A stretch of DNA of 64,000 nucleotides from Dudresnaya verticillata (Eukaryota): contig OZ374560.1 of NCBI GenBank assembly GCA_977862235.1, positions 992,001 through 1,056,000 of the forward strand, written 5' to 3'. A program made the position numbers and the translations under genes. Of the stretch, positions 6,988 to 57,779 are shown piece by piece. Numbering within the stretch: position 1 is the stretch's first letter; each line of letters begins with the position of its first letter. The notes beneath the pieces were generated by a model. The model saw only the letters and a list, made by a program, of their open reading frames with translations, had not been told where the DNA came from and searched no databases.

Positions 6988-8291
6988 TTACTCCAAGGAA
7001 ATACAGCCGATCCAGTTCCGATTTTGTTGGAATGCAGACCCAGTTAGAGCCTTAGTGAAGCCATCGGCTTTGTTAGCTTCGGAGGCTGTGTAGTCGATAT
7101 AGACGTCGCCTTGTTCAACTGTGTCAAGAACATGCCAATGCTTAATGTCAATATGACGAACGGGGTGGAGATTGTAGGCACCAGCTGACCAGCTTATGGA
7201 GCCCAAATTGTCTTGGAATATAACTGTGGGACCATTTTGGCTGAAGCCCAGTTCATTAAGAACATTACGGATCCACGAAACTTCTTTCACACAGCTATAT
7301 AAGGCAATAAATTCAGCTTCTGCCGTCGAAAGCGCAGTGCAGGTTTGCAACTTGGAAGTCCACATTATTGGGCTTCTGTTGACCATGACGAGCATCCCAG
7401 AGCGCGACCGGCGCTTAATCTTATCATGTCCCCAGTCCGCATCGCACCAGACTTCTAAATTGATTTTTTCCAGACGTGGTACACGACTGGGATGGTTTGT
7501 GTGGAAGGACACCGAATTGTTTTGCTCCACGCAGATACTTGATAACGTGCTTGAGGGCAGCCCAATGGGCCGGAGTAGGGGCTGCCATATGCTTCCCAAG
7601 CATTGAAACGGCAGTGCTGATATCGGGGCGCGTTCTTGTACAGAGGTAAATGAGACTACCCACCAGACTGGCGTATGGGACTGCTTTCATCCTTTCCTTA
7701 TCGTCTTGAGAGAGCGCAGAGGGAATGTCACAGAGCACATGTCCAAGCGGTAAGGGCCAGGGCTTAGCTTTGGCGCTATCCATACTGCACTGTTCAATTA
7801 AACGCCGTGCGAAGGTTTCCTGTGATAGAAAAATACCTTTCGGAGTTTCTTGAAGCTTGACACCGAAGAAGAATCTAGGGGTGCCCAGGTCCGTGACTTG
7901 GAACACAGTTTCAAGTTTTGTTCTGACGGCTTGTATTAAGCTGGACTTTCCAAACATCAAAATGTCGTCTACGTAGGCCAAAAGATAGACAACTCCATCT
8001 GCAAGGTTCCATACAAACACACATTCAGTCGTCTTCAGCGCACGAAAGCCAATAGACTTGAGATATTGGCTAAGTACCTTGAACCACAACTTAGGTGCCT
8101 GTATTAGACCATATAGGGACTTCAGCAAGCATACGATTCGTCCGTTGGCTTCTGGAACACCCGGGATGGTTGGAAGCTTGATCCAAATTCGAGACGATGG
8201 TGGGAGCGCAGCATAAAGGAAAGCGCCCTTAATGTCGATATGCTTCCGGTCCCAGTCGAACGCAACGGAAAGGGTCAGTAGCAGTCGAATC
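6988..8291 (-). pseudogene. pol: Ty1/Copia pol, RT and RNase H (3' part), frameshifted near 7500
   Basis: HIDIKGAFL, KSLYGLIQAPKLW, AYVDD, PYASLVGSLIYL, TRPDIS, CDADWG, STAEAEF, RHIDIK, ADGFTK. Confidence 0.95.
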
Positions 8292-9157
8292 TGTGGTGCA
8301 AACGTCGTGGACGATGGACCGCCGAGTAGTTCGGGGCTCGGTGGGTAGCTGCGCCCTCGGCGGTAGGTAGTCCCGCCGTGGGCGACTTGGTGGTAGAGCA
8401 AAGGGGCACGCCTTGGGCGGACTGTAAACGCCCGAGGCGGAAAGGAAGGGAAAGGGCAACCGAAAGGGAGCACGTCAAGAACGATGGTAGACGTGGAAGC
8501 ACGGGAGGTAGACGCTTGAGCCGTAGGGCAGCGGTAGGAAACGCACGTGCGAAACGGGGAAGTCTGGACCAAGGCCGCCTTGCCCGGGGTTTACTCAGCG
8601 TCTCAGACGGATACCTCATATACTACGTGAGCGACGGCGGCGGGCGTGGTGCGCGGGAACTCAGGACGCGTGTCGCGCCGTCGAGTGTCTGACACGTCGT
8701 CGTCGCCATGCAGCCGTGTGCGCGGGAGCTCAGGAGTAGCTTACAGGCGTGCGTGCGAGTAATGGGTGACTTACAGGCGCATACGTGTAGCAGTGCGGAT
8801 GATCCGGATTCGGATCCAGATCCCCGCCAGCATTGCTGGCGCGCGGCCATTACAGGCGCGCTCCTTACATCCCTGTGGATCCGGATGCCGGATCCCGATG
8901 TCCCATCCGGATCCGATCCGGATCCGGGCCAAGCTTACGGGCGTGCGCCTTGCGCCCGGCCGATCGGGATAATGCATCCGGATCTGGCCGTACAGTGTGC
9001 GCGTGCGCCGCGCCACGCGGGGTAACGGCGGCCGTATGCCCGTGGGCCAATCTTCGATGACGTGTTCGCGCGCCAACGGCGGTGGACGTTCCGTCGGTAG
9101 ACGTTGGCATATAATACGCTCAGAGCGAAAAAGGGGCAGCCCTTGCCTTGCACCACA
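8292..9157 (-). repeat. 3' LTR of Gypsy A (866 bp)
   Basis: TGTGGTGCAA...TTGCACCACA 10-bp terminal IR; direct repeat of 20935-21801; adjacent PPT (minus strand GCGAGGGGGTCG, 9158-9169). Confidence 0.97.
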
Positions 9158-9604
9158 CGACCCCCTCGCAAAACGCGAACACGTCCGTCGCAAGCTTGCG
9201 TTTCTCTGCGGGTCCCACTTTGTCGTGCGTGCGTTCCTGCGTTCCGGCTGTGCCGTGCTAACTTCGCGTGCTGCGCGTTGCGTCCGGCGAGCTCTCGCGC
9301 TCTCTTCACCGTTCTTCATCGCCGCTGGCGCATCGTGAATCCCGTCAACGACGCCACATCCAATTCGTCGCCTGGGGCGTGTCAGCTGCATCGTCGTCGA
9401 CGAGTTGTGTGAAGTTCATCGCCCAAGGCGCAGGTGTTTCCCGTCTGTGATGCAGCTTCATCGTAGTCGCCCGTGGCGCAGAACAAAAGGCGTCTTTGAC
9501 GTAAGCAAAAAGTATAACCGCCTGTGGCGTGGGGCAAGAGTCGTCGTTGACGTTTGTTTAACCTTAAGCGCCAGTGGCGTAAACGAAGTTGCGTCGTTGA
9601 CGAT

Positions 9605-11963
9605 ATGCCGACGTTCAATGGTGTGCAGGTCGCGGCGCCCTCGGCCGGGCCGGTATACTTATCTCCATACGACTTCGTCGGGAAGAACCCGCAGGATCAC
9701 GGGGACCTCTTCGCGCAGGCCCCCTGGTTTGACCAGGAGGCCTTGCGCAATGAGGAGCTCATTGCTCATTACGCTATTAGCGGATTTTTGCCGGGGGGGA
9801 CTCCCCCTTGCCGTCGTCTGGACGATGGATTGGAAGTTGCGCTGCGCGGTGCCGCCCGAGTGGCTTTGGGTTCGCGCAGGGAAATCTCGTGCGGATGTTC
9901 ATGCCAAGTTCGTCGCAGACGTGTATCGTCGCTCGACGCGTTATCCGTGCTCGGCGTTAACGCTGGCCATTTTCGAGTTTGATGCCGGTCAATACCGGAC
10001 CAAGGGCGAGATCGAATATGGGAATCGTCTAGGGACGTTATCGCTCAAACATCTGAGCGTTTCGGCAGAGCCGCGTATCAGGCAGGAGGCGTACCTCCTG
10101 GAAGTACGCTTGAAAGCGGATTTCCGTTACCAACACCGAACGGGGACGTTCTTTTGGGAACGGTGCATACGTTGGGAATGTGAAACGCGTCGCCGAAAGG
10201 GCGTTTTTGTGGCCTACCAGGATATGCAGGTCGATCATATCGAACGCAGTAAGTTGCCTCACTGCTTCGTGAAGGTACCGCCTGTTTGGCAAGAGTTCGA
10301 AATTTGCGAAGGTTTCGCTGCCGAACGTCCTCCGTGTCTCACGTATATCGGGTCGGAGTTAATGACGGACCCGTACTCCAAATGGTGGGTGATGTTCTAC
10401 ACCGAATGGGTGGCAAACGTAGCGTACGCATGGATGTGGGAGGTGTATGACACCTTCCGCATTTATTATCTGCCACTTCGCGTAGTCGCGTCTCTTGGTG
10501 GCCTGGACCTGGCTGAGATAATCGGCGGGTCGAGGAATAGCCAGGAGTTCTGGGATTTGCGCTCAGTAGCGGATGAAATTAACTGGAACGACCCGGCGAT
10601 GGTGCCACTAGGGAACAACCGTCGTAAGACGAACCGCCCGCGATTCGCGATGAGTCGTACTCACTCCGCCTATGGCGATTGGATCCATTATTAACCATGG
10701 ACGAAGCGTCGTACGACGAAGAACGTTGCGGAGCGCCATCGCAAAACGGACCGCTTCACACCGGGTAATCACCCGCGTGGTTTGCGTAAGAGCTGCGACT
10801 TTGTCGGTGATTTTCCTCCGCATTTGAGTGTCTTGATGGCTGAGGAAGATTCTTTTAACGCCGATGGCGAACCGGGGAACCCGTCTGGGACGGCTGTCGC
10901 TACGCCTATGGCGGTTGAGTCATCTGCCGAGGCTGCGGCTCCACCATCAGCTTTGCCGCAAGGGTCTGCTGGTGGTGTTGGGGTGTCAGCTGGCTTGCCA
11001 GCTGTGGCACCCTTGGACCTTGCGGCTCCCGTCTCGGACGTTGATGGCGATGCCGTTATGGCGACGCCAATAGTCGAGTCGGCTCCGCCGACAGTAACGT
11101 CTCAAGGCGTAGTATCAAACGTCATAGACGGATCTGTGAATGCGCCCTCGGTGCCAGTCTGGACCGAGGAACAGCGCCGCACCGTGCTCGCCTTATTGCG
11201 TGCAGCTGGAGTCGCTACTAGCGGTTTGAGTGGCTCGCCCACTGAGTGGGTGAGCCAGGCGCTGGCGGCTGCGTCGCGACCCCAGGGTGCTTCGGTGCCG
11301 GTGCCGATGGTTGGTGTTGGTTCTGTGTCGAAAGACGGTGCAGACGGAAAGTCGTCATCGCCCAAGGCGACTGGTTCGGCGTCCAAGGACGTAAGTGCTA
11401 CTGTACCGCCAGTGGCGAGCGAAGCAGATGTCGCTACAACGTCTCCGACGGTTGAGGAGGGTCCAGTGGCTCCTGCGTTGATGACGGATATAGACCCAAT
11501 GACGCCAAAGGCGGGTGAGGGGTCTACGTCGGTTCAGACGGTTGCGACAGTTGCGCCGAAGGCGGTAGGTTCTGCGACGACGCCGAAGGCGAGTGATGAG
11601 TTGAACTCTACGCCAGAGGCGGTTCTGGTTGCTGCGTCGTCCAAGGGGACAGTCCCTGCAACGGCGCCGAAGGCGGATATTATCGGTGCAGCGCCGGAGG
11701 CGAATGACCGACTTGGTTCTGCGCCATCGGCGGTTGGCAAAGCCAAAGAGGCTTCGCCGCCTAAGGCGGGTGGTGAGTCGAACTCTTCGCCAGCGGCGCA
11801 TATTGCTCCTTCAGCTGTGGCGGTGGCGGTTCGTTTGCGGTCCGTCCCAGCTACTGCTGTGGGTGTGCCGTCGGTGACGGAAGATGACCTCTATGAAGAG
11901 GCATTGAGGGAGTCCGCCGAGGGCGATGGTGCGGTGGGCTCAGCGAGGCCGCCTGCGACGTGA
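9605..11963 (+). pseudogene. Antisense accessory ORF of Gypsy A, unknown function (about 785 codons reconstructed)
   Basis: ATG at 9605, one frameshift in the G7 run at about 9793-9799, one in-frame TAA at 10692-10694, then open to 11963. Aromatic-rich core followed by an Ala/Pro/Ser tail with PKA repeats. Homologous to 58114-60022 and 34037-36518. Confidence 0.8.
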
Positions 11964-13509: not shown

Positions 13510-16500
13510 TTAGCCGCGCTGCGCGTCATCGACGTTTGGCGGCAGCGGCGTACGTTTTCGACGGTGGTACCGTGTGACGTGGGATCGCGGCAAACTGGAG
13601 ACTGGCTCCCAGGTGTTCGCTGAGGCGGGGTATCCAAACCACTTGACGCGGTAGAGGATCTCATCATCATCCGCGTACGCGTGCGACTCGATGCGTTCAA
13701 TCACGTATTCTTTTCCGCTCACGGCGTTCGGCTTGGACGTGGGCCTGTCCAGCGCCTTTGGCGGTTTGACTCGTTGCGTGATGGGCGTCTGTTCCGGTTC
13801 GGCGAAACTTACTCGACGAGTTGATCGCCGAAGGCGTTGGCCTTGGGCCTCGGACGCTCGATCAGCGGTCGGTGGGTTGTTGCGTCTGAAGACGCGTCTT
13901 GAGACGAGTTCATCGCTTGCAGCGCCTTTCTTCGTGCTTGCACGGTTAACGTCTTCGTTATCGGACGCGCTTGCAGCGGAGTCATTGTTCTCATTCGGCG
14001 GTGCCGTAGCGACGTGTTCCAAACGGGTTCGGACCCCTGGGGTGTTGTCGTCGTTGGAGACGGATTGCGAAGCGCGGTCGTCGGGATCGGCGGCGAAGGG
14101 CGAAAGCTCTGCCAACCCACGACTGCGCGACGCTGTGATCGTGCGCTCTTGCGGATCTCCCGCAGTATGCGAAGTCTCTGCATCCCCCTCCAGGTCCGCT
14201 GGTGGCGTGCTTGGGGTGGTCGTCCCTTCGTCTTGTGACGTGGGGGCGACCGCTTCCTGCTCCTCAGGCGGGCCTAGTGGTACGACGATTGGAGGGGCCG
14301 CCAGACCCGGTGGGGTCGGCGCCCAGACCACGGGGTTTCGGGACAAACGTTCCCGCTCATCACGTCCCTTGTCGACGGTTACCGTCTCGTTATCAACGTG
14401 AGTTACCCGGTATGGTCCGTCTGCCACTGGCGCGAGCTTATGCTTACGCTCTGCGCGGTCCGTGCTCCCGCCTCGGCGAAGTGTTCCTTACGTACGAATA
14501 CGAAGTCGCCTACGGCGATTGCTTCCTTCGATTTCCGTAATCGGGTGTCAAAGTTTCGTTTGTAACGTGCTTGAGTCTTCTCTAACGACGCTTTAGCGGT
14601 TCCCATCAGTGCGGCCAGCCAGGTTCGCCACTTGGTGTAGTATTGCCCCGCGGTGGGTACTTTTTCGAGCGACGGTTCCGCTTCGAGCGACAGTGGCCGT
14701 GGTGGCTTAGACAGCACCAATTCAAACGGAGCGAGATGCGTAGAAGAATGCAACTGTGTGTTGTATGCGAACGTCAAGGCATCCGTGAACAGGTCCCAGT
14801 CTCGCGGATGATCCGCAACGTAGTGACGCAGCGAGGCCAGGATAGTTCGATTAAATCGTTCTACCTGGCCATTGCGTTGCGGATGGTACGTCGTGGTGAA
14901 GAGATTCTCCACTCCCAAAAGACGGCAGATATCCTGAAACAGCTTAGCCACAAACTGTGGTCCGTTGTCGGACAACATTTTCTTGGGGGGGCCGTACACG
15001 AAGACCCAATGTCGTACGAACGCCTTAGCGATTTCCAATGCCGTAATACTACGCAGTGGGACCGTCCGGACCACCTCGAGAAGCGGTCCACAATGACGAG
15101 TAGGAACTTGTTTCCTCGCTTCGTGCGTATGAGTTCGCCCAGGATGTCGATCGATAAGAATTCGAGAGGCTTGGTTGCCGGGAACAACTTCAATTGCTTG
15201 GTGTTCTTTCGCAGTAATACGCGATTCTTAGCGCAGGTTACGCAGTTGCGGACGGTCGCATAGGAGCCCACTGGCATCGATGGCCAATAGTTTTCGCGTC
15301 GAAGCGTATGATATAACTTACGCCCTCCTGGGTGCCCTGCCAACTTGGCGTGGTGCCGGAGGTGGAGTAAGCGAGCGCGTAACGCGGAGGGTACGACTAC
15401 TTGCGGACGGACTTCCACTGTTCGGACCAACAGGCCCTGTTCATCCGTTGCGAACGGTAAGATGACCCCGTCATCCAGACGTTTCCTGACATCGTTACAG
15501 TATTTGTCATCGCCTTGGGCGTGTATCAACTCTTCATGCGTCACTTGACGAAGGAGTACCTCATCCGTCGGTGGCGTGATGTTGATCAACACTTGGTCGA
15601 ACTCTTCGAACTATCGTTCGGCGAAGTCGACCTCGCCTTCGGCGCCTGACGCATCGTCTTGTGACGTTTGATGTCCGTCTTCGACGTAGCTTCCGTGATA
15701 GCACGGTATACCATCGTCAATGGGCTCGACGGTTTCTCCCTTCGTCTGTAGACGCGAAAGGGCATCTGCCTGAGTATTCAGGTACCCCTTTTTGTACTTC
15801 ACGACAAAGTCGAACTCGGAAAGGCGAAGACGCCACCGCATTAACCGTCCGGAGGGGTCGCTGATTTCCATCAGCCACCTCAATGACGAATGGCCCGTAT
15901 GGACTGTGAACGACTCCATCTGGAGGTAAGGTCGCAGCGTCATGACGGACCATACTACTGCGAGGCACTACTTTTCGGAGACCGAGTAGTTACGCTCTGG
16001 AGCGGTGAGCGAGCGGGACCAGAAGCCGAGTGGCTTACGTTCCCCGTCGGGCTGCGTGTGAAAGAGAGCGCAGCCGATCTGATACTCGCTTGCGTCGCAA
16101 TCGACGGAATAGGGGAGACCCTGCTGTGGTAGCGCCAGTATAGGCGGATGAGTTACGGCCTCGACGAGCGTACTGAACGCTTTGGCTTGTGTCTCATCAA
16201 ACGGTTGTAACTGGAAGTCCTGTTCCTTCCTCAGCAACTTGTTGAAGGGGGCAGCGACATGCGCGTATCGCGAGACGAACCGTCTGTAGACGTTACAAAG
16301 ACCGAGGAAACTCCGTAGCTCCTTCTGATCCCGTGGATGCTTGTCTTCGCGTAGCGCGGCAGTGACAGTTCGGTCAACTTCTAACCATCCGGGACGTATG
16401 ACGTGTCCTAAGTAGTTGACGGTCGGGGTGAAGAAGTCACACTTGGTCAACTTCAGGGTCACCCCGGCACGGTGCAATGTCGAAAGGATCTCATCAACAT

Positions 16501-18235
16501 GACGGAAGTGACTGTCGATGTCACTGGAGAAGATTATGACGTCATCGAGGTAGACGAGGCACGAACGCCACTTGTAGCCAGCAAGCAGTATGTCCAACGT
16601 TCGTTGAAACGTAGCGGGTGCGTTCGTGAGACCGAATGGCATACGCTTATAGCGGAACAGACCGGCGTGGCACGTGAACGCAGTCTTATCGCGGTCTCGC
16701 GGATTGATCGGCACTTGCCAGTACCCACTGTTACAGTCTAGGGTGGTGAAGACGTTTGCTTCTCCTAGACTGTCAATGCATTCGTCGATACGCGGCAGCG
16801 GGTACGTGTCCCGTACAGTTACTGCGTTTAAACGATGGTAGTCTACGCAAAAGCGGAGGGTCCCGTCCTTCTTGGCGGCGAAGACCACTGGTGACGCCCA
16901 CGGCGATTGTGCGCGTTCGATAACCCCTTGATGCAGCATGCGGTCCACTTCCGCTTGAGCGAGTTGTCTTTGCTTCGGCCCCGCTCGGTAGGGCGGGGAC
17001 GATATCGGTCTAGAACCGGGAAGCAAGTCGATGTAGTGCTCCGTGGTTGAGATATCTCCCAACGACCCGTCCCACATAGACGATTACTTGCGCAACATCT
17101 CCTTAAGCCGGCCTTGATGCTCGGCGGGGAGATGTCCCAGGTCTAAATCGTCTACTGACGGAGGTGTGGCAGTGGTTGCCTCGATAGACTTCGTGAAAGT
17201 ATCCGGCTGTGCCGCAGTGTTATCGTTCGTTTGAAAACGGAAATCTTGGATTGCCTTCTCTTCCTCGGCCTGTTCCTCTGTGAGGCCCAAAACATCGGCT
17301 AGACTTACGTGACTGGGGAACACTGCTGTCGGATGTGGTAACGCCGTCGCGACGACTTGGCCCTTGGCCAGCGCCTGCGGACGGGGAGAGAAGTTGGCAA
17401 CCAGAATGCGAAACGCTTTTAGCGGCTCCACTTGAGCAATCCCGTTCGTAACGGCCAGACCTTGTTTGTCGTACAGCGTTCCGAACGGTTGAATTGTGAT
17501 TATGCCGGCGCGCTCGGTGGTCACCGATACCCATTGCTGCGCCTTAGGCGGGATGATCGCGCGCTCGGCAACTCGGATCTTGGGCGACGTCCTTCCTTCG
17601 GCCTTGCCGTACTCCTGTTCCGTTGGTAACGGAGGATACGACGGGGGTCGGCGCAGCGGGCGGCGCGTTATAGGGACACGAGTCCCGTCATCCAATTCGA
17701 CCTCGCGACTTCGCGGATATTGCTTCGACGAAGCGGTCGCAAAAGTCGCAACCGAGTATAACCGGCGCAGCGAGTCGTTCGCAAACGATCAGTTCCAACT
17801 TGACGACTCTCCGTCCTAGACGAACGACCAGGTCGATGGTGCCTCTTGTCTGGATCGCCTTATTGTTGGCGTCGGCTATGATGGGGAGGCTCTTTGCCAC
17901 GATGCGCGATCGCGCTTCCAGCGGAATGTCGTCAATGCGAATGAAATTCGGACCAGCCCCCGTGTCGAGGACAGTGAGTTTACGTGCCAAGGTACTAACG
18001 GTTGCGCCCAAATCGGCGTACACCTTATAGTTCCTCTTGGCCATTACGAACAACTGCCCTCGCGCCTGTGGGGGCTGGTACCTTCGCCATGGGCGTTTTA
18101 ATGACATCTGTGACGACTCTATCCGCCCGTTGGCGTCATCTGTAACTAACTTCGGGCCCTCCTTCCGTGTCAGCACCCGAGGCCTAGGCCTCTCTTCGCG
18201 GTGCGACACCCCAGTGTTGGGATTTGGTGCCCGAG
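13510..18235 (-). pseudogene. pol: Gypsy A pol (protease, RT, RNase H, integrase, chromodomain) with several frameshifts and stops
   Basis: VLDTGAGPN; LRFCVDY, MPFGLTNAPATFQR, VYLDD; DCDASEY, NYSVSEK; GHPGG, CVTC, SDNGPQF, YHPQRNGQVERFN; GPY; EYVIERI...YRVKWFGYPASANTWEP. Confidence 0.96.
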
Positions 18236-20807
18236 TTAGTTTTTCGCCTGCGGCGGTGGTTGCGGAGCTACATAGCGGTTGATCCTCGTCGGATGACGTT
18301 CGGCCGCGTGCGGCATGGGTCCGCCTCGTGGCGATTGTGGTCGTGCAGCACGGCGAGCAGCGTCGCGGGTCGCGCGTTCCTTGCAACGTACATACGCATC
18401 AGCAGGGACACTAGCCTTCTCGGCTTCAGTTAGTCCTTCATAGTTGGTAATAACCTTCATGAAGTCGCTCATGCGGAGGAAGCAGTCCGGTGCGATGTGT
18501 CCGCGGGCGTAGCATTGGTGGCATACCAGCTGCCGACGCGCGTCTTGACGCGGCGGGCCTCTGTCCTGCCATCCGGGCCTGGCTCGGTGAACGTGTGGAG
18601 CATACTCGGAATATGGGACGCGTGGCGCGGGTACGACAGAGCGCCCAAAGGCGAGAGCAGGGTCCATATCCCTTTCGTCCTCGTCGTCGACGTAGCTGTC
18701 CGTCGGTAGAGCCGAGGTTGGCACCGACGCTTGCTCGTCTGCCAAGTACAGATCGCCTTCGGCGTGTGTTTCCATGTCATCGACAGGGCGGCTAACGTCT
18801 CAGAACTCGACGGAGGACTCCGCTATCAGAGCGCGCGCTCCAGGCTTGGCGCTTCTCTTCTGTGGACGCAGTACTCCTCGGGCATCGCCGATGGCGGATC
18901 GCGATGTGGGCGGATCGCGATGTGCGTACGGCTTGAGCCGGTGTCAGTAGGTCACGTCGTGCTGACGCGGAACCGGCCCTGCCGTGTCGTGCGCGGTTGG
19001 CATCCACTTCTTCCTGTGCGAAGTGAACCAGCCGCTCAAATGATAACTCCGCCCTTGGCGTTTCTTCTCGGAAGCGAGCGACCAGGGACCTGATCGACGG
19101 GTCTAACCCGTCGATGTACAGTGTCATCTTTTCCCAGTCAGGATATACGTTACCGCAACGAATACACGCACCGGCTAGCCGCATCCCATAGGTCGTCTCT
19201 TCCTCGCCTTGCTTCTGGGCCATCGACCGTAGGGCGAGGACAGCGTCCCTGATCGCCGCTGGCGTAGCATACGTACGGAGGAGGTACTGTACCGCCTCCG
19301 GATACGAGGACACCCCGCCACGATGGCGAGAAGACGTCGACTTGACGGAGCGGAATTGCGTGGCTGCCGTACCTCGCAAGAAGTACGGCAGTGCAACGAA
19401 CGCTTGGGCTTCGCTCATATCCAGCGTATCGGCTTCATCCGCGTAACGCGTCAGGAAGTCGAGGACCATGACGGGGTCGCTGCCGTTGAAGGCGGCGTCC
19501 TTCATGGTCCGCTTCAAGCGCTTAATATGGTCCTTGACCTTACCCGTATCGCGCTAGTTTTTGCCCTACGTCTTTGAGACGGTACGTCCTGTACGATAAT
19601 AACTGATCGAGAAGGGGTTGGAGGGGCGTAGCTCCTTCAACCCCTTGAACCGCTTTCCGCGAGGTCTTGCGGCACTGCAGGTAGTTGGGAAGTCGTCGTC
19701 CTCAGACGAAGAGTCTGCTGACTCTCCGTCACTTGACGAGTCTGAAGAGGACGAGGATGAGCCCCCACGTCGATGACGGTTCTTCTTCCGTCTCTGACGC
19801 AGCTTACGGCGGCGTCTCTTCCGATTCTTACGTCTGTGACGATCTTCGCATGAGCTCTCGTCACCCGACGGTGGACCGTTGCGCCACTTGGCGGTTTCGA
19901 GACGCTCTAAGCGAGTCGCAAGTCGCTGGAAGCGTTCGCGCGAGCTAAGCTAAGAATGCGAATGAACCGTTGCTGCCGGCGGTGGTTGTGTACCCTCGCC
20001 TTGGGCGTTTTGGTTCGTCAAAAGACGGTCGAGGTTGGATCGAAGCCCTTGTAGGGCGCCGTTCCGATCCTCTTCCAACGTCTGTAGAAGACTTGCGATT
20101 CCTCCGACACTGTCGTCCAGCAACGCGGCGAATCTAGCGAGCATCGCATCGTCCTCCAAGACGCACACCTCTCGGATCCGTTCGCGTGGTATCGATAAGT
20201 TACTCACGCGGACGGCCTAGGGTGACGCCGTTGGCGGTACGCTTTCGCGGTTGGACCGGTCGGGCGTCCCTTGCGCTCTTTGACTTGGCGACTTCGGCTT
20301 AGCCGGCGAACAACCAGCACTGCCGTGGGGAGTGGGGCAACATGCCCCTTGTGTCAATGGTTCGTCAGCGACGTTGCGCTCCGCGGAGTGCGCTTGATCG
20401 TCGTTGACGGGGATGGTTGGTTGATACGGGCGTTCCGGTTGTCCCTCGATGATGTCGGCTTGTGTTCCGTCTACGACGTCCTGTTGCTCGGCTTGTACTG
20501 TATCAGCCGAGTCAACGTAGGAGCGGTAGGTGCGGAGGGCCGATCCCTCGGGGTCGGAGGTGCGGACGACGACGGGGTTGCGCGTCGGCGGGGGAGGTAA
20601 CTCTCCTCCGTTGAGCGACGCGTGGGAGCCTGCGTGGCCGTGGCCCGGGGGTAGCGTCAGGAACGCCGACGCGATCTCGGGGCTCACGAGGCGCCCAGAC
20701 CTCGTTGTCATCCGCTGTAGCGACCGTGCAGACGCGGGTACACTCCCATGCGTCGAAGACGGTCTTCTTGAACTTGGGCCTCGCGACGGCGGAGGTCGTG
20801 AGGCCAT
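18236..20807 (-). pseudogene. gag: Gypsy A gag, fragmented
   Basis: FNGSDPVMVLDFL capsid-like region homologous to Gypsy B gag; zinc knuckle CHQCYARGHIAPDC; lies between PBS and protease. Confidence 0.88.
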
Positions 20808-20932: not shown

Positions 20933-20934
20933 GA

Positions 20935-21801
20935 TGTGGTGCAAACGTCGTGGACGATGGACCGCCGAGTAGTTCGGGGCTCGGTGGGTAGCTGCGCCCT
21001 CGGCGGTAGGTAGTCCCGCCGTGGGCGACTTGGTGGTAGAGAAAAGGGGCACGCCTTGGGCGGACTGTAAACGCCCGAGGCGGAAAGGAAGGGAAAGGGC
21101 AACCGAAAGGGAGCACGTCAAGGACGATGGTAGACGTGGAAGCACGGGAGGTAGACGCTTGAGCCGTAGGGCAGCGGTAGGAAACGCACGTGCGAAACGG
21201 GGAAGTCTGGACCAAGGCCGGCTTGCCCGGGGTTTACTCAGCGTCTCAGACGGATTACCTCATATACTACGTGAGCGACGGCGGCGGGCGTGGTGCGCGG
21301 GAACTCAGGACGCGTGTCGCGCCGTCGAGTGTCTGACACGTCGTCGTCGCCATGCAGCCGCGTGCGCGGGAGCTCAGGAGTAGCTTACAGGCGTGCGTGC
21401 GAGTAATGGGTGACTTACAGGCGCATACGTGTAGCAGTGCGGATGATCCGGATTCGGATCCAGATCCCCGCCAGCATTGCTGGCGCGCGGCCATTACAGG
21501 CGCGCTCCTTACATCCCTGTGGATCCGGATGCCGGATCCCGATGTCCCATCCGGATCCGATCCGGATCCGGGCCAAGCTTACGGGCGTGCGCCTTGCGCC
21601 CGGCCGATCGGGATAATGCATCCGGATCTGGCCGTACAGTGTGCGCGTGCGCCGCGCCACGCGGGGTAACGGCGGCCGTATGCCCGTGGGCCAATCGTCG
21701 ATGACGTGTTCGCGCGCCAACGGCGGTGGACGTGCCGTCGGTAGACGTTGGCATATAATACGCTCAGAGCGAAAAAGGGGCAGCCCTTGCCTTGCACCAC
21801 A
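20935..21801 (-). repeat. 5' LTR of Gypsy A (867 bp)
   Basis: Direct repeat of 8292-9157 with about 7 differences seen by eye. Confidence 0.97.
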
Positions 21802-21806
21802 GAATC

Positions 21807-24352: not shown

Positions 24353-24976
24353 TGTGGAATAATGAGCGCCCGAGCGCTGTAAGCACACACGTGTACAGAC
24401 GACGCCTGTAAGGCGTGAGGCGCCCGAGGGTGCGATGGTTGAGATGGCTGAGTATCATTGGTTGATTAATCCTGGTCACCCATATTTTTGGCATTGCGCG
24501 CCAGACAGCAGCGCGCCTGTACCTCGTAGTGGTACTACCACTCATTCCTATCATTGGATTGTAATCCACCATTTAGTGTACAGTATTAGGTAACTGTCGG
24601 TATTATAACTCTAACATAGAGTGGGTAGCATTTCCGGCTTCCCGCCGTATTTATTGGGCCCCTGAGTAGCAGGGGCCCCGCACTAAACCGGCAGCGGTGT
24701 GTACTTTGGGCTGTACCCATTTTCTGGTCTTCCTACGGTGCCACCGTTGTTCCCTTGCCTTGGGCGTTTACAAGCCCTATCGTGTACGACGATTGCTCTA
24801 CGCTGTAGGGTTGGCCTTCCCTTTTCTTTGTTCCTGGGTATTACAACCATTACAAGTCTCTACCACACCCCTTTTCCCTTTTCCTTTGAGCTACCGCCCA
24901 CCGTGAGTGTTTGTCCCCAGTACAGCTGTCGCGCCGTTTTATCGCCGAGTACCTGGCCGAGGGCCATTCTACTACA
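24353..24976 (+). repeat. 5' LTR of Gypsy B
   Basis: TGTGGAAT...CTACTACA; direct repeat of 37082-37705. Confidence 0.97.
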
Positions 24977-25410: not shown

Positions 25411-28120
25411 ATGCCTACATCTAACGGTGATACAACGCGCCCCGGCTTATCTAGTCGAGGCGTCAGTCGTACAGGCAGTCTGGCCTCCGTAAGAACGGTA
25501 GGCGCCCGCACCCGTGCGGTCGTAACCGCTCTTGCAAACAATCCGGCAACGGAGGGGCTGGGACCCCCGCCCCAAACGACCGGCGTCCCAGCCGAAGAAG
25601 AACCACCTGGCCTGGTAGGGATCAGGTCCCTGACGGAGAAAACACGGTCCGAACGGTTGGAGAAGCCCCGCTGACATCGGAGAGAATGACGGTTCAGGCC
25701 GTAGAATGATGCCGCCGCCCCTGGCGTTAGCCAGTGTTCAAGCTTTGGGCGGACGAGCCCAGGAAGAAGAAACTCCGGCAACCCCGGACGAAGGGTTGCC
25801 AATTCGAACGAAGTATCATTCGTCTGATATCCGCTGCTTCACGGAGCGTGAGATTGGACGAATGGCCGAATTAGGCATCGAGAGATCCTTGACGACGAGC
25901 GTCGTGGTACTGTTGGAAAGCCAAGCCGATGATACCTTTTTAAAGATCAAGAGGTATATTGATGAGGCATCCGCGCGCCGTGATGATCGCCTCCTGGCGA
26001 GGTGTCAGCAAGAGATTGAATCTCGAGGTCGACCAGGTCCTCCCAGAGGATTAGACGAAGAAAGGGTCGAAACCCTGCAGGCGCAAGTGGACTCCCTCGG
26101 GGACCAATTGGATACCGTCCACGAGGAACTACACGCGCTCAACAAGGTCACAGACCTAACAAGAACAGAAGCCGTAATGGCTATACAAGACGCGTAACGG
26201 AACGTGGACGACACAAGGTGTGTCGAACAAGATCGAGCCATCGAGCGCTTACGCAAATATATCGATGGAGAAACACGGAAGGTCGCGTTGCTAGAAGCAA
26301 AGATGAGGCGACTTAATCGTGAACGGGATTTACTCCCTGAAGTCGAAGGACGACGCTCCCCTGTGCCTCGAGCCACCAGGGACCGTCGCAAGACGTCTCC
26401 GCGACGTGACTCGGGAGGGGAGTCTGGAAATGACGACTTTGGTCGTGAGAGGACGGAACACCCTCGGTGTAATTGCCGGGCGACGCACGGTTCCAACGTG
26501 TGCCCCAGCCGGATTGACTCACGTCAAGACCGGTACTCAAGCCGCAAGGCTGAGGATCAACGCCGAAGTAATTCCAACCCCGCTCCGAAACACTCGGATG
26601 AAGATGAACCCACCTCGCAAGGTCTTTCCCGACCGTCCTGGAGCTCTTGGAGAGGACCACGTCGGACGGGACTTAAGTTGTTGGCTCCCCGAAACCCTGC
26701 CTTTGTACGGGTTCTTTCGTACCGACGCTATCGGTTGTTGAATGTCGATTCATATCGAGGACCGGAAGTAACGGAAGCCAAGTCCAAGAAGATTAAACGG
26801 GTTAAATCCGTAATGAGGAGTCGCCGTTTTGATGGGAGTGACCCAGTTTCCATAATTGGCTTTCTGGCCACGTTGAAACGACAGTTGGATCAAGCCCAAG
26901 TCAGTGAAGGCGCTGCCATTCTGGTTATCCCAGAGTTCTTGGAAAAAGACGCTAAGGACATGTTCGAAGCCAATTTCGATGTAGCAGGCGACGACAATGG
27001 GGGTTTCAATGAGTGGCCGGAAGCCATTAATTACCTCCTGCGTACTTACGCAAAGGACGTCTACATCGAGAAGATTTCTGCTGAGATGGACACGATGATT
27101 CAGGAGTCTGATGAGGAAGAGGTTACGTTTTCAAGACGTTTGCAGAATAAAGCGCGAAATATCGCAGGTGTTTACTCAGAGCAAGACCTGATCACACGTT
27201 TTATACGAGGGTTACTACCTGCGGTCAAACCGCTTTGGAGTACGTCATCACTGGACCCTCGCACGGCGCGACTGGCAGACTACGTTGAGCTCGCAACGGC
27301 TCAGGGAGATTCCCACCGAGCCCTTGTGGGTGGTGGACGCTCCAAGAAGAAGAGCTCAATGCTACCCCGAAAACCCCTCTCCAGGGTGAAGACGCACAAG
27401 TCTGGTCGAGCTCTTCTCATTCACCAGAATAGGACGCAGATGTCCTCGGATTCCGATTCATCAAAGATCAGTAGCTCTGACGTGGATAGCGAGTACGCTG
27501 TGATGGCTGCCTTCGACCACGAAGCGCCTCCATCCACGGTGACCCAATCAGACTCGTGGTCTGGGGCACCCAGTGACCAACCACACTATGGTGAAGTGGA
27601 AGCGGTTCTACAGAACTACAACCACCGATTACTTGGATGAGCACAACCAACAAGGACTCAGCGTCCTGGGTGGGTAACAGTCGAAGATGCACCCAATGAC
27701 ATTTGTTTCGAGTGCTATGGCGTGAGCCACAAAAAACCGAATTGCCCATATCTGGCTCGCCCGGATGAACCGTCACTTGAGGCGCTAAAACGCGGACAGT
27801 TTTATCACCTGATGCGCGAGCAGAAGACATGGTTAGCCACCATAGGGCGCCTACCCCAGTTCGCAAACGGATATACCCGTGGGGACCACCGCGACCACGC
27901 ATCGTCAGGACGGGCCAGTGGGCCGCCGCCAGGCAGACATCAACATTTGGGGTCAACCCCAGGCAGGAACGGACATGTCCAATTTAAAGCGGGAATTAAT
28001 GACCCGGTTGACACTCCCAGACACCCACCGTCGGCGCCACGCTCGCCAAGACCAGGGTCACGAACCCTTCCGCCGCCTCCACCGCTTCCGCGGTCGCCTG
28101 ATAGCAGGGCGAAAAAATAG
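25411..28120 (+). pseudogene. gag: Gypsy B gag, fragmented
   Basis: YRRYRL, FDGSDPVSIIGFL, WPEAINYLLRTYA (matches Gypsy A gag); coiled-coil-like N-terminal part; zinc knuckle CFECYGVSHKKPNC near 27705. Confidence 0.88.
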
Positions 28121-31100
28121 CTAGGGGGGAACCGGTTTCGGTTCACTGGGCAAACCCCAGTCGTATCGGAACCCCCCAATCGTTCAGAGGGATGTGACTT
28201 CTTAAGCGTCTCCTCTACCGACCGATCGGTGTCGCGGGAAACCCCACCTTCGCTTCCAAAGAAGATTTTAGAACGCCCCGTGGGCCTACCGCCCGGGTAT
28301 ACGTATCATGAGTATGTTAAGGACCCCGTTTGCTCTCTTTCGAGATACAAATATAAAGTTGTCGCGTCCGTGGGGACTTCTGTTGAGAAACGTACTCAAG
28401 TGCTATCAGTCTTAGACACTGGGGCGGGCCCAAACCTCATCCGAGCCGACGTTCTCTCTTTTGAAGAACGGAAGAAGGTATCTTCGACCCGATCGATCGT
28501 GAATTTGACATCCGCGTCAAGTCACCGCTTAACAACTATGGGAATGATCTCCCTGCCCGTCAGAATTGGCTCCTACACGGTACGACAACCGTTCGTCGTA
28601 GTCAAGGCATTAGCCGTTGAAATGATCTTAGGATGTACCTTTATCGATACCCATGTCGAAGCGTTGCGTGTACGCAAACAAACCATCGCGCTACGGGACG
28701 GCTCGATACACCCGATTCTACGACGCCGGTGCGGTATCCCGAGAGCCACGAACTCTGGCGAGCCCATGGAGGTCCCTCCCCTACCCAACTCGCGACTCGT
28801 GAGAGTTGCCCAAACAACTAACTTACTACCCGGTTCAGAAACCTGGATCTCCGTCACGTGCACGGCCAAAGGAACGCACTTCCTAGATTCGTTCCAATGT
28901 CTATACGACCGTCAACAAGTGATCATTACGAATGGCATCGTCACACTCCAAGAGAACGTTCTCTTCCGGGTCAAGGTTGCCAACTTTTCTTCCCGCACAC
29001 AACGGTTGAACAAACACCAAGTGATTGGTCGCGCAGTTCCCGCTCCCACGGCCACGCCTGTATATTCGGTTTCCATCGACGACGTCTGCGAGGATAAAGT
29101 CTCACAACAAAAGGGCACGAATCCTCACACGGAGACATCCTTCGATGTAGGGGGGCAGGGCTGGCTGCTGCTCTTGGCGTGACCAATTCCAAACCGGGCG
29201 TTACAACCGCCGCTGAGAAGCTAACAGTCGATGACTTAGCCCTGGAACACCTCTCTACGTCTGAAAGACGTCTCGTGCGCAAGATGTTGCGACCCTTCGC
29301 AGATATGTGGAACGGGAAGCTCGGGACCATAAAGGTCACGGAGCATCGCATCAATCTCACTGACGGGGCAAAACCCGTGTTTGCACAACCATATCGGTCT
29401 GGACCGAAGGCGCGACAAGCGGAGCAAGATGAAGTCGACAAGATGTTGAAGGAAGGTGTCATAGAGCCAGCGCGTTCTGAGCTCGCAAGTCCAGTGGTAC
29501 TGGTGAAGAAGCCAGACGGATACCTCCGTTTCTGTGTTAATTACAGAAAGCTTAACGCGATAACCATCAAGGATTCTTACCCTCTCCCGCGAATGGACGA
29601 GTGCTTAGACTCGTTGGGCGACGCCCAATATTTTACAACCCTTGATTGAAATTCAGGGTACTGGCAGATACCAGTCGCGGCGGAGGATAAGCCAAAGACC
29701 GCTTTTACCTTTCATGCAGGTTGCTTTCAGTTCTGCCGAATGCCATTCGGTCTGTGCAACGCACCAGCAACGTTTGAACGAACAGTTGAGATTTTATTAT
29801 CGGGATTCCTATGGGAGTCTTGTCTCGTCTACTTGGACGACATCATAGTCTTCTCTAAGAGTGTCACCGAACACTTAGGCCACGTTCAAGAGATCCTCTC
29901 TGTTTTGAAGGAAGCGGGTGTGTCGCTCAAGTTGAAGAAGTGTAATTTCTTCACAAAAAGCGTGGACTACCTCGGACACGTGATCCGACCTGGTCTCCTG
30001 GAGGTAGGTACCAAGAATACACAAGCCATCGAAGGCTTCAAGGAACCTACGACGCAAACGCAACTACGGTCGTTCATTGGGCTATGCAACGTCTATCGAC
30101 GTTTTGTACCGAACTTGGCACGCGTAGCGTCTCCGCTAAATAGGCTCCTACAGAAGGACGTTGGTTTCGAACTACCTCCATTCGATGAACGGCAACGCGA
30201 AGCTTTCGCTTTACTGAAGAAAGCCCTCATCGCGCCGCCAATCCTCCGACTTCCTAAGGAAGACAGACCCCTTTCCGTCGATACCGACGCGTGTGACTAC
30301 CAAATAGGGTGCGCTCTAATGCAAATGGAACCCGACGGGACTCGACACCCTATTGGCTTTTGGAGTCGGGGGCTAACACCAGCAGAACGGAATTACTCCG
30401 TCGGCGAGAAGGAATGCCTCGCTGTAGTCTGGGCTACAAAAATGCTCAGACCATATTTGGAAAGGTCTCATTTGGACCCCTACACCGACCATCAGGCTCT
30501 CAAATGGATGATGAGCATGACGAACGCGTCCGGACGCCTAGCGCGATGGCGCTTGCGTCTCTTAGAGTATGACTTCACGGTTCAATACCGTAAGGGAAAG
30601 AAAAATCAGATTGCTGACGCTGTCTCACGTTTACCTACCTATGGGTTTACTAAGTGGGAACCGGATCTCGAGATCCCCTGCTTCATAATCGCTGATAGCG
30701 ATGGGGAAGATCCCCCTGACCCTTCAGCGAATGAAAAATCGCGAGCCAACACCAGGTCGCGACCTTTGGAAGAATGGGAGATGGAACCCGAAGACAATTC
30801 GTTCGAGTCGGGTCTCGAGGACGAGCAATTGATAGCTAACGTGGCTGAAAAGGAAATGGACGAGAAGAGTCTTTCACTCCTCACAATAGAGGAACTTCTT
30901 CGCGCCCAACGAACAGACGAATTCTGTAGGGGTATCCGATTAGCCATCGAAGCGGGAAAACCGGGATGTTATCTGGAAGACGAACGCGGACTCCTAGTCC
31001 GAAGGTCTTACATTGACCGAGCCTTACAGATAGTCATACCTAGAGTTATTCAGGAGAGAGTCCTACATCTTGCGCACTACCCGGATATGGCTGGCCATCC

Positions 31101-32716
31101 TGGTGGCACACGGATGTACCACAGCTTGAGAAGGCAAGTGTATTGGCCAGACATGGCCCTTGCCGTTTACTCGACAGTGCGTAACTGTGTCAAGTGCGCG
31201 ATGGAACGAGTCCAGTTGAGGAAACATACTTCGCACATGAAGTTATTTCCGGCTACTATGCCGCTCGAATTCCTAGGAATTGATATCTTGGGCCCGTTGC
31301 CGCGATGAAGCAAAGGGAACGAGCATCTTCTCGTCATCACCGATCGTTTCTCGAAACTTACACGGGTAGTCCCGTTGAAGACGGTAACGGCTTATACCGT
31401 AGCGAGAGCATTCTGCGAACACTGGGTGTATATATACAGGCCACCCCGTTACGTTTTGTCCGACAATGGATCGCAGTTTGCTTCTAAGTTCTTTATTGCC
31501 GTCTGCGGCATCCTCCGTATTCGGAATATGTTCACCTCTACATATCATCCGCAGACCAATGGTCAGACCGAGAGGTTCAACCGCACCCTTCTAGCAGGGT
31601 TGAGACACTTCATCGCAGATGATCAAAAAGGTTGGGACGAGTTCACGTCGGCACTAACGTACGCGTATAATACGACCGTTCATCGTGCTACGGGATTCGC
31701 GCCCGTTGACTTGGTTCTATCCAACCCACCGACTTCCATCCTCATGGAGAAAGCTGAAACGGTCGACGTGGCTAACGCACCTGCGACTAATTTAAAGAAG
31801 CGGCTGACCGCTAGACTTGAGAAGCTGATGGATACAGCGTTGCCTCGGCAAAAATTAGCGCAACGTCGCTACGAAGCTAACTTCAACAACCGCATGCGTC
31901 TGAGCAATCAGAAGATACGCCCGGGGCAATGGGTCTTTCTCGAAAGAGAAACTAAGATGAAAGACACTAGAGGCGTAGCGCGAGAAGGAAAACTTTCCCA
32001 AAGGCTCTGGGGCCTTATAAGTTCCTCGAGAGAGGAACGCACACAGTCTTGCTTGAAGTCAAGGGCGAGCGAGAGTCAATCTCGTTGGACCGCGTGACCT
32101 TGGCGCCCTCGCCAGACGAAGAGCTCGGAGCTCTAGGACAGGACTCCACGATAGTTGGTGAAGCACCAGAAGCTGGAAATCATATGTAACCACCTTCTGG
32201 GCCAGAGCCCACTGATGAATCTCCCACTGAAGGGGCAAGAAGAAAGCAAGATGAGGAACGCTCAAGAAAGGCCGTTGGACCCGCAAATGCGACGACTGTC
32301 CCCCTCCATTAATTGGAAACACAGACAATATCGATAACACCGTGGGCCCGGTTTCTCCCAACATACCCCCTACAGAGGTACCTGTTTCCCTATCGCAAGG
32401 CGGTAACGCCCCACAACTCTTACAGGAGTCAAATCCACCTGCCGCTCCGACGGCAACGCCGGCGATTGAGGACAATGTGACGGCGCCTCGCCGTAAGTTT
32501 TCCCGCTATAAGAAAGCACCCCCACGTGAGTTCGTGTATGACAAAATCGTCGACTATGACGCCGATACCCATAAGTACCGTATCCGGTGGTTCCAATGCC
32601 CAGCGTCGCAAGACACCTGGGAGCCAAAGAGTCACCTCCCTGAAAATTTAGTCAAACGGTATCACCGTTCCAAGAAGATCCTCCTTCCAGGAGTAACTGC
32701 CGACGCAGTGGCTTAA
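28121..32716 (+). pseudogene. pol: Gypsy B pol (protease, RT, RNase H, integrase, chromodomain) with stops and frameshifts
   Basis: VLDTGAGPN; LRFCVNYRKLN, MPFGLCNAPATF, VYLDD; DTDACDY; GHPGG, CVKC; SDNGSQF, YHPQTNGQTERFN; EFVYDKIV...YRIRWFQCPASQDTWEP. Confidence 0.96.
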
Positions 32717-34036: not shown

Positions 34037-36518
34037 CTAATCCGATAACAGGTCAATAACCTCATCCTCAACCAACGGAGGATTCGGCTTGGGTGCCGAG
34101 TGAGATACGACGACACGTCGCACGTCGCGCACGACGTGACGACTTTCCCCTCCGCGACGCAGACCACGACCACGCCGACTCCCCTCTAACTCGTTTAACG
34201 CACGGCGACTGGCCGTTGGCTGGTCCACTTCCATGGCATCAACGCCATCAGTCTGGCTACCCTATACGAGTGGGGCTACTTCGTCTTCTTCCTTAACAAC
34301 GAGCTCAGTCTTCACGACGACGGCATCTTGAGGGGCCACGCTAGACTCGCCAACAGTGGGCGAAAGCCCAGTCTCGATATTCGCAGGCTTCTCGCTCTCT
34401 TGGCCGGTGCCACTTGGTTTAACCACCAGGGCGTCACACTTAGAACGACTAGCATCGGGCTGGCCCCGAGAATCATCTCGGGGAGAGATCGTGTTGAGAA
34501 ACTCGCCAGTAGCGACGAAGCCAGACATGTGCGTCGTAGGAGCAGCCGGCGCCATCGTCGATGATGAGGCGCCCGCTGTATTGATCGACTTGGGAGCCGA
34601 GTGGGATATGTCCGTCCCATGACTGGCCGAAGGTGCCTCAGCTGACTCTTCACGAGGAACCACCGAGGTGTCACCACCTGTCACAGCGCGTGGATCCAAA
34701 CCCTCGACCTTAGCCGATTCCTTCTTCACTCGCGGCGTCGCAGAGTGGCCAACGCCCAAACGCGGTCTGATGTCAACATCATCGGGGTATGCCTTCAAGG
34801 GCGGGAACCTTGACAAGTGGGCACGAAGTTTCTCTAAACGCTCCACAGGACCCGGAGTCCTCATCCAATTGGACTCATAGTCCACCATAACCTCCTCGAC
34901 CTAGCCGGCGAGGCTATTAACGGTGAGATTCCGTAGTTCCCAATGCACCGCGAGGCGGATAACCAACCCTCGTATGTTGAAGACGTCACGCAAGACGTGA
35001 TTGGCCTTACCGTGGCCAGTTGACGCCGGCGCGTACGGACCTTGAGACTGACCATCGACAGTGTCGTCGAATGACGGGACGTCCCCTGGAGTCTCCGGAC
35101 CGGGGTCCTGCCAACTGGCGCTCACCCACCCGTGAGTCACACCGGTGATGCGGGTTCCCTCATCCAAGACCAGGGGTCTCTCCTCTGTCGGCTCAGGCTG
35201 AATCAAGAAGTCCGGCAACACCGGATGCCAATCTTCTGGGTCAAATTCCACCCAATCTCCTCGGTCATATAGAGGAGTGAGATGACCGGTGTTCTCCGGT
35301 AGATGACGATTCCGTTTGGAGATTCGGCTCCACCGAATGCGGTCTATAAAGACCAAAAGGGCCTTCAAGTCCTCTGCATCATTGGCGTCCGCCGACAGAT
35401 TGTCGATACCCATCTCCTTTATGGCAGCGCGAAGGGGCTGGTTGATGAAATACAGCACCCCATGACGGGCCTCATAGACGAGAGTCTGAGCGACTAAGAC
35501 GATCCACTCGTGTCGAAAAAGACTCCAAAGGACACTCTCGTCCATGGCTCGCGCCACCATGTTCAACCCGAAGTAAGCCACAATAGTGGGTGTTCCGACG
35601 GGCATAGAGTATGACACTTCGTACGACGCATGGTCGTCAGGGATCTGAGGGTACTTCGCCCTATAATATTCTGGTTTGATGGCAGCCACTTCTTGACAGT
35701 GACACGGGATGAGGCACCCCGTCTTGTGGCGCTGACGTCGCTCGAAACGCGAATACGCTAATGGCTTGGCCGTTTGGGGATTGTCAAGGGCGTACTTGAG
35801 ATTCGTGGACTCATCCCCGCGAACTATGCGGGCTAACGTATACGGGTAATTATCCCGGCCCTTCCGAATCAGCGGACGAGCGTGGTTGACCATACGCAGG
35901 TCCCACCCTCCACGCGAGTGGATTTCACGCAACATCTCCAAGTGGTAGTTTAGATTCCCCGCCACGCTGTTCGTGAAGAACACCTCATGCCTGAATCGCA
36001 CATATGCGAGATCCCACAGATAGCATGACGCCTCTCCCTGAAGGCCGGGAACGAAACGGTTTGTGCCGGTCAACATCTCAACCCGCGCACGGCTCACGCT
36101 GTTCCACATCCGGCTTTGCGCCACGCGTCCACCGCGTCGTTGGATATCTTCCCGACCAGCCCCAGCACGGGTTTTGATATGTGCCAGGTCGGTACGGACC
36201 AACCAGTCGCGACTGTGCTTGATGGCCATCGGCACGCCCGCCGAATCCACTTCGTGGCCGAGGACGCTCGCGCTAGATCCAACCTCCCCATACGCAAGGC
36301 CGGAGTTATTCATCACAGAGATGAGCGCGCGACAACGTTCCGAGACGTGGCACGTTTCTTGGACCGCGAGTGGGGTAGTCCCCCAGATATTCTTCTAAGG
36401 CACGGAGGCCTTGTCTTCGGTATCCGCGTCGGCTCCAGAGCCGAACCCTAAGGTGGCGAGCGCGACCTGAAAATACTTCTAAATCGCGGAGGCCTTTCTT
36501 GAAATACGTCGGCTCCAA
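34037..36518 (-). pseudogene. Antisense accessory ORF of Gypsy B, unknown function (about 825 codons reconstructed)
   Basis: ORFs 36316-34901, 34888-34262 and 34234-34037 share one frame, separated by single stops; the probable N-terminus 36518-36306 needs a frameshift. The core aligns by eye with the Gypsy A extra ORF. Confidence 0.75.
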
Positions 36519-37081: not shown

Positions 37082-37705
37082 TGTGGAATAATGAGCGCCC
37101 GAGCGCTGTAAGCACACACGTGTACAGACGACGCCTGTAAGGCGTGAGGCGCCCGAGGGTGCGATGGTTGAGATGGCTGAGTATCATTGGTTGATTAATC
37201 CTGGTCACCCATATTTTTGGCATTGCGCGCCAGACAGCAGCGCGCCTGTACCTCGTAGTGGTACTACCACTCATTCCTATCATTGGATTGTAATCCACCA
37301 TTTAGTGTACAGTATTAGGTAACTGTCGGTATTATAACTCTAACATAGAGTGGGTAGCATTTCCGGCTTCCCGCCGTATTTATTGGGCCCCTGAGTAGCA
37401 GGGGCCCCGCACTAAACCGGCAGCGGTGTGTACTTTGGGCTGTACCCATTTTCTGGTCTTCCTACGGTGCCACCGTTGTTCCCTTGCCTTGGGCGTTTAC
37501 AAGCCCTATCGTGTACGACGATTGCTCTACGCTGTAGGGTTGGCCTTCCCTTTTCTTTGTTCCTGGGTATTACAACCATTACAAGTCTCTACGACACCCC
37601 TTTTCCCTTTTCCTTTGAGCTACCGCCCACCGTGTGTGTTTGTCCCCAGGACAGCTGTCGCGCCGTTTTATCGCCGACTACCTGGCCGAGGGCCATTCTA
37701 CTACA
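37082..37705 (+). repeat. 3' LTR of Gypsy B
   Basis: Direct repeat of 24353-24976 with about 4 substitutions seen by eye. Confidence 0.97.
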
Positions 37706-56941: not shown

Positions 56942-57779
56942 TGTGGTGCAACACCCGAAGACAACGGGGATTGCCCCTGACGGTGTTCGAACGGTCTCCC
57001 GCCAGGTAGTAGCAGACACCACGCGATAAGCCGGGCATCGGCAGCTGGGTAGAGCAGATGAGGCACGGGGTGTGCCCCGGGTGGTTGAGACGTGGACGGG
57101 GTCGACTGTAAACCCCCGACCCACGTAGAAGTGCTGCAGTGCACGTAGGACGGCAAAGGCGGTTATGCCGGTGAATGCCGTGAATACAAGCAACGGAACA
57201 GGGTGCGTAGGCCCAGGCCGCACACGGTGCTGTCATCGGGAGCAAAGTTGGGGGTATCCTCAGGTCCCAAAGCCAGCTTGGCGCTTTATTGCCAAGGGGG
57301 TTCACCCCGTATACTATGTAGCCCCCGCGGGAGGTGCGCGTTCGTGGGTGGCGCCGTGCGCCTGACACTTGGCATGCGCGCGCACCGTGAGCTGACTAAA
57401 ATATCACCCAAAATATCTAGCGTAAAAATAGTAATATCGCAGTGTAACCAGTATAAACTAATGGTGCGCATTGCTGGCGCGCACCCGAGCGAGGACTCCC
57501 TCGGATATATTCGTCGCGCGTGTCGCTCGTGTACACGTGGATTCGTGTCACCCGTGGGTGCTGTTGGGGCATACTGTACGGGCGCACGCACACGGTGCCA
57601 AGGGCGCGTTACCTATTGGCCGGATCTCGCGCGCCGCATACGCGCACAGGCCCATTCAACCCGCCGGTTATCGGCGTATGCTCCGTTCGCGGTTGAGCCG
57701 CGTGTGCCGTCGTCCGCTCACCGCGCGAGCGGGTGTAGCGATATAAAAACGGGGCTTATCCCCGGGGTCTTCCACCACA
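56942..57779 (-). repeat. 3' LTR (838 bp) of truncated Gypsy C
   Basis: Starts TGTGGTGCAA as in Gypsy A, ends CCACCACA, followed by TCGCCCCCCTC (minus-strand PPT). Confidence 0.8.

Follow-up and report, generated by a model that had tools for sequence, protein, structure and literature searches.

An antisense-encoded protein family beside the 3′ LTR of chromodomain-bearing Gypsy elements

Does the long open reading frame that runs against the coding strand of several Gypsy elements, starting close to their 3′ LTR, represent a gene of its own, and if so, which elements carry it and what might its product do? The question is raised by a 64,000-nt stretch of DNA, the whole of which we refer to as the window, that is a nest of transposons and in which a preliminary description had recognised three Gypsy elements, A, B and C, each with such an antisense ORF (aORF). 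The parts of the three elements are as follows.

8292..9157, minus strand: element A 3′ LTR, 866 bp, TG...CA, 99.2% identical to 20935-21801, TSD GAATC on both flanks
9158..9175, minus strand: element A polypurine tract (PPT), a purine run adjoining the 3′ LTR
13510..19553, minus strand: element A gag-pol, with Gag, RT, RNase H and integrase (Pfam), several stops and frame breaks
13561-13707, minus strand: element A chromodomain, within gag-pol (Pfam)
20935..21801, minus strand: element A 5′ LTR, adjoining the PBS
24353..24976, plus strand: element B 5′ LTR, 99.4% identical to 37082-37705, TSD CACGC
26198..32716, plus strand: element B gag-pol (Pfam), chromodomain at ~32555-32668
37082..37705, plus strand: element B 3′ LTR, with a PPT directly before it
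56942..57779, minus strand: single LTR of element C, the second copy absent from the window
57780-57797, minus strand: element C PPT, adjoining the LTR

A and B are complete Gypsy elements of young age, each with a chromodomain. Pfam places Gag, RT, RNase H and integrase in both as well as that chromodomain, and both show the PR-RT-RH-IN order together with LTRs and a TSD, the pol of B, like that of A, carrying stops or frame breaks. Their LTRs are unrelated and their primer binding sites (A, 20917-20934, minus strand; B, 24978-24995, plus strand) are an identical 18 nt, which differs from the PBS of related GC-rich loci and which we take to resemble the acceptor end of tRNA-Tyr, not the usual initiator-Met type. 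"Chromodomain-bearing" denotes domain content here and not placement in the chromovirus clade, as our RT tree holds no named reference RTs and chromodomain Gypsy lineages are described outside chromoviruses in the available part of PMC12477816. For C, neither pol nor chromodomain was found in 56000-64000, nor a second LTR within the window, so that "Gypsy element C" stands on an LTR, a PPT and a broken antisense ORF alone. A second TGTGGTGCAAC start, ~440 nt to the left of C's LTR (56498-56941), is possibly another LTR end.

Copia-type remnants (6988-8590, 21764-22897, 22868-24382 and 44759-45898) flank A and B, from which it follows that A, and probably B, inserted into Copia elements. The window further contains a LINE at 46800-52943 (minus strand) with endonuclease and RT domains and long unannotated ORFs ahead of them, a second partial LINE copy at 685-1656 (plus strand), a hAT-like transposase at 4210-6255 (plus strand, weak Pfam match) and a Harbinger-type DDE_Tnp_4 fragment at 40688-41221 (plus strand). 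A dispersed repeat with short internal tandem units (40158-40368 and 55295-55511) and a pair of inverted repeats of 74% (39065-39811) are possibly the ends of non-autonomous DNA transposons. At the end of the window (63017-64000), a 145-bp near-perfect palindrome (95%) closely precedes a plus-strand ORF that is broken and contains a DGxHR motif; this ORF has no Pfam match and is reminiscent of the ParB-like accessory genes (PAG3) of red-algal transposons.

In both A and B the aORF lies antisense between the chromodomain and the 3′ LTR. Its first ATG is found 447 nt (A), about 770 nt (B) and 334 nt (C) inside the LTR edge, in keeping with a start a few hundred bp inward, and the three copies comprise the following pieces.

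9605..9805, plus strand: aORF-A N-terminal core piece, with the first ATG and DLFAQAPW; deep HMM positions 3-59, E 2e-8; matches intact relatives
9780..10787, plus strand: aORF-A main core; deep HMM positions 51-384, E 7e-96
10788..11963, plus strand: aORF-A low-complexity tail, with an LRSVP motif and a weak small-helical-unit match at ~11160-11276
34262..36310, minus strand: aORF-B, antisense to gag-pol; core 35210-36241 uninterrupted, deep HMM E 6e-56
58114..60160, plus strand: aORF-C relic; core 58486-59620, deep HMM E 9e-97; tail with a small helical unit; no pol beyond

All 22 motifs searched from those listed for A, B and C in the preliminary description were found at the expected places and strands, and each core is indeed followed by a low-complexity tail. 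The motif GFLPGGLP of A was searched and found as GFLPGG, the full motif being readable only across a frame break, and the claim that 9605-11963 forms one ORF fails, because the frame changes at a G run near 9793-9800 and an in-frame stop at 10692-10694 lies inside the conserved domain. One near-invariant arginine is also substituted in aORF-A. The C copy is interrupted by three in-frame stops (58867, 59257 and 59344) and shifts frame near 59470-59490, and in aORF-B the stops are confined to the tail, with 16 of 24 checked conserved positions unchanged. The A and C copies are broken, and the sole uninterrupted core among the three is that of B.

The three proteins align, strongly between A and C (tblastn E 5e-42, 34% identity over 271 aa) and more distantly for B (A against B, blastp E 2e-6), with shuffle z values of 66.6 (A-C), 9.5 (A-B) and 10.5 (C-B); none of 1000 shuffles reaches the real score, and in each comparison the aORF frame pair scores top among 36 frame pairs. 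Nucleotide identity between A and C is 53% at the first, 53% at the second and 33% at the third codon position, a signature of protein-level selection, and there is 1 stop in 713 codons of A and 1 in 682 of B, where 1000 shuffles gave minima of 7 and 8. That the aORF is a genuine gene under selection we consider close to certain.

A profile of the three cores, run against 1.84 billion proteins, retrieved 717 clusters (50% identity) at E<=1e-3, with 313 clusters at <=1e-10 and 59 at <=1e-30. Many of these are intact proteins of 500-900 residues; family analyses used the best 150 of the 717. No named relative was present among 23 clusters looked up (sources ENA, Logan and JGI). Genomic context was examined from the RT towards the aORF only, in loci fetched independently with the RTs of A and B (best 80 of 432). 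The related contigs have 60-69% G+C, a marine origin is named on some, and a chromodomain is present in 7 of 8 related loci checked. The G+C content and the marine origin, taken with the ParB-like motif ORF at the end of the window, would point to a red seaweed as the host. An antisense core lies 0.65-3.6 kb beyond the integrase in 30 of these best 80 loci, 49 of the 80 being scored as too short to judge, and, among the 23 loci where the sequence past the integrase runs to 3.5 kb or more, it is there in 22; the 30 loci amount to about four families and are therefore not 30 independent cases. In the one exception (L004) the entire 3′ part is inverted, so that the aORF is still antisense to its own chromodomain. 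A same-strand match in L066 belongs to a neighbouring minus-strand element, and a second same-strand match in L014 resembles the same family.

Seen from the RT side, the antisense position thus holds in nearly all of the long loci, and two loci call for separate mention. L003 (140-8126), one of the loci scored too short, is compact yet complete: a Gypsy element with a chromodomain and a polyprotein of 1345 residues, related to A and B by RT (57%), it has no aORF, which indicates that the gene is dispensable in a relative. In L073 (481-1203) a divergent member of the family lies upstream of a pol gene and in its orientation.

The gene has descended together with the RT and is under purifying selection. 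Over the 42 pairs that join two sister groups, NG86 dN/dS of the aORF core (0.28) is like that of RT (0.31), and within groups the values (aORF 0.42-0.50, RT 0.36-0.60) are as expected of decaying copies. Both genes are available in 27 elements, namely A, B and 25 of the 30 loci. In this set the distances of the aORF correlate with those of RT (Mantel rho 0.72, inflated by family clumps; 0 of 2000 permutations), all five aORF splits with support of at least 0.95 also occur in the RT tree, and none of eight RT splits conflicts with the aORF tree. A and C group together in the aORF tree and B falls in another subfamily, whereas A and B are sisters in the RT tree among the rows sampled; sparse sampling, faster evolution or old exchange could account for the difference. 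The proposal of a third gene under selection is thus sustained by the size of the family, its fixed antisense position, RT-like dN/dS, congruent trees and a confident fold.

This fold is seen in an AlphaFold model with 390 residues at pLDDT >=90 and a pTM of 0.68, from which the product is predicted to be a soluble, folded core of ~390 residues with a disordered tail and a tail unit of 2-3 helices. The tail unit is a candidate LEM/SAP/HeH-type helix-extension-helix unit, and was matched in the aORF-A tail with an HMM iE of 0.008, against 2.9 for a reversed control. For the core no Pfam match was found, and Foldseek with the model, in which the core spans residues ~46-445, gave no match at E<=0.001 in the PDB and viral libraries. 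The earlier statement that no Env or other known domain is recognisable agrees with these searches, as nothing matched in any sequence or structure library searched, the core being weakly tested in the wide structure search, which ran with core and tail modelled together and was filled by the tail unit. With a median pI of 6.7 and a net charge of -1 the core is not basic, and conserved Arg and conserved Asp/Glu are equal in number (11 each at >=60%), a balance that would fit a salt-bridge network as well as a nucleic-acid surface. In the tails, NLS-like motifs occur in 12 of 61 (5.0 expected), SIM-like motifs with an acidic flank in 8 of 61 (1.1 expected) and SUMO sites in 6 of 61 (1.8 expected), counts that concern a minority of proteins and come from 24 pattern-region tests, with several patterns picked after reading examples.

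As for expression, the preliminary description had placed an antisense promoter in or near the 3′ LTR, and two sites come into consideration.

9109..9116, plus strand: TATA-like run in the A 3′ LTR, a candidate antisense promoter, 6/7 match to TATAWAW
57742-57747, plus strand (the aORF strand): TATAAA in the C LTR, 7/7 match to TATAWAW

The run in A is the only A/T run of at least 6 in the 866-bp LTR, and in A and C the site lies 38-50 nt inside the LTR edge on the aORF strand. The B LTR has no TATA-like site; among 16 related LTRs it is missing in most and at best weak in some, one family showing no more than a 5/7 variant at the same place. The sites make an LTR promoter for the aORF plausible in A and C.

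We tentatively favour, at somewhat less than even confidence, a product that acts as a nuclear self-regulator, likely sustaining element expression. The reading draws on a product that is predicted to be soluble, on a disordered tail with its motifs and on the shared descent with pol, and it follows two precedents, maize Grande GENE23 and the VANDAL anti-silencing proteins, by analogy with which the role would be regulatory or anti-silencing; GENE23 is described as a nuclear protein with its own promoter in the available text of PMC7264820. The aORF would be transcribed as its own mRNA, with a start close to the U3 edge of the 3′ LTR or at that edge, the tail motifs would provide nuclear entry and SUMO-type contacts, and the protein, once in the nucleus, would probably act on the chromatin or RNA of its own element, so keeping the element expressed. 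In its boldest form, which we regard as doubtful, an algal chromodomain Gypsy lineage would carry an antisense-encoded, self-targeting anti-silencing factor or chromatin/nucleic-acid enzyme with a fold absent from the PDB, a counterpart of VANC in LTR retrotransposons that spans more than 700 divergent clusters and is as old as the RT lineages of its carriers.

If the core were instead an enzyme with a fold not yet described, for which nucleic acid or chromatin marks would be the likely substrates, its putative active site would be formed by near-invariant Asp, Arg, Glu and Tyr residues (D172, R177, E181, Y184, E236, R237, R240, E277 and Y292 in P0005), which are 85-97% conserved despite an overall identity of about 30% in the family and which A, B and C retain, all three or most of them at each position. 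The size and confident folding of the domain would suit this, as would the accessory enzymes carried by other algal transposons (10.1101/2025.02.11.637652, in the part available). However, no enzyme family was matched by sequence, and no His, Cys or Lys is conserved at >=60% (Cys makes up 1.6% of the core), which argues against a metal, thiol or P-loop site, and we consider an enzyme unlikely. To the same degree unlikely is a life-cycle factor that binds genomic RNA, Gag or the integration complex and serves RNA export, packaging, nuclear entry or insertion-site choice, a role that the available text of PMC7264820 proposes for such ORFs: co-inheritance with pol under equally strong constraint and the NLS-like tail motifs are consistent with it, but the complete relative L003 does without the gene, and an ORF off the genomic RNA strand would be uncoupled in its expression from Gag-Pol.

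Less likely still is a gene that limits its own element, either in copy number or by superinfection exclusion, with the protein as the agent and antisense-derived dsRNA as a possible second one. Antisense transcripts over the 3′ region could feed silencing (PMC7264820) and HBZ offers a retroviral precedent for an antisense regulator (PMC11963269, both in the parts available), but RNA alone does not explain protein-level selection and a fold, and the carriers seem numerous and diverse. An Env-like protein was considered and rejected, since the ORF is antisense and its products have no membrane segments: hydropathy stays below 1.5 in A, B and C and reaches at least 1.8 in 3 of 75 near-complete relatives, and a signal-like N-terminus occurs in 2 of 72 family proteins. 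More broadly, it is very improbable that the ORF encodes a protein of Env type or one for cell-to-cell movement, was captured from the host or belongs to an unrelated transposon nested here, for while the slot between pol and LTR is one used by env and the window is full of nested elements, the ORF is antisense without membrane or signal segment, the 23 clusters looked up yielded no named relative, the position is fixed and the tree agrees with that of the RT.

PMC7264820 and PMC11963269 pose the function of antisense extra genes in LTR retrotransposons as an open question. For this question the family offers a tractable case, with hundreds of divergent clusters, many intact members, a confident model and near-invariant residues to mutate, and with L003 as a natural control. 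The aORF core may add a new fold, and if the host is a red seaweed, the family bears on retrotransposon expansion in red seaweed genomes.

The antisense layout itself is already known, being of the aORF-3R kind (Grande, RIRE2, Retand, Boty); of the protein family within it we found no description in the full-text literature open to search, to which this negative result is limited. As the preliminary description had noted for Retand- and Grande-type elements, antisense ORFs between pol and the 3′ LTR occur in maize Grande (GENE23), rice RIRE2 and Silene Retand (PMC7264820; PMC11963269) and also in the fungal Gypsy element Boty (PMC7264820), and, so far as the available portions of these sources go, the aORF resembles the class in position, antisense strand, a start a short way inside the 3′ LTR, presence in most copies (here the long loci), pol-like conservation and a function that for the class is not established. 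Retand, in contrast, is a non-chromovirus lineage of flowering plants with TRP28 (PF04195) and often tandem repeats, according to the same portions. The elements here have chromodomains, in A, in B and in most of the related loci checked, and no tandem array in the region, and PF04195 was found in none of 65 intact relatives (E<=0.1), 27 core segments (E<=1) or the window proteins, on which grounds membership in the Retand/Tat (TRP28) aORFs was rejected. The extra ORFs of plant chromoviruses are described as 5′ ORFs (PMC11728184, in part). Comparable in setting, by its description, is brtn of Boty/BcGypsy1 in Botrytis (PMC7264820; PMC8365987), likewise a third gene that follows pol in antisense, in a Gypsy element from outside the plants. 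Our ~390-residue core has no conserved Cys, and the aORF protein is not TRP28, not Env-like and not Cys-rich.

HBZ of HTLV-1 is a small bZIP protein of a retrovirus, whereas no bZIP match was found in the aORF family, and homology is not implied; it is alike in its antisense position, at the 3′ end of an element with LTRs, and, on the reading favoured here, in the part of a nuclear regulator (PMC11963269). The VANDAL elements with VANC and the red-algal Plavaka elements with PAG1-3 are DNA transposons, and in PAG2/PAG3 one recognises methylase, SET, ParB or oxygenase domains, no counterpart of which was found here, but they too have accessory genes that became a fixed part of one transposon lineage and for which action on the element's own chromatin has been proposed or shown (10.1101/2025.02.11.637652). 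With the present family the antisense layout reaches a third element group, where an unrelated protein fills the same slot, suggesting repeated recruitment of regulators there.
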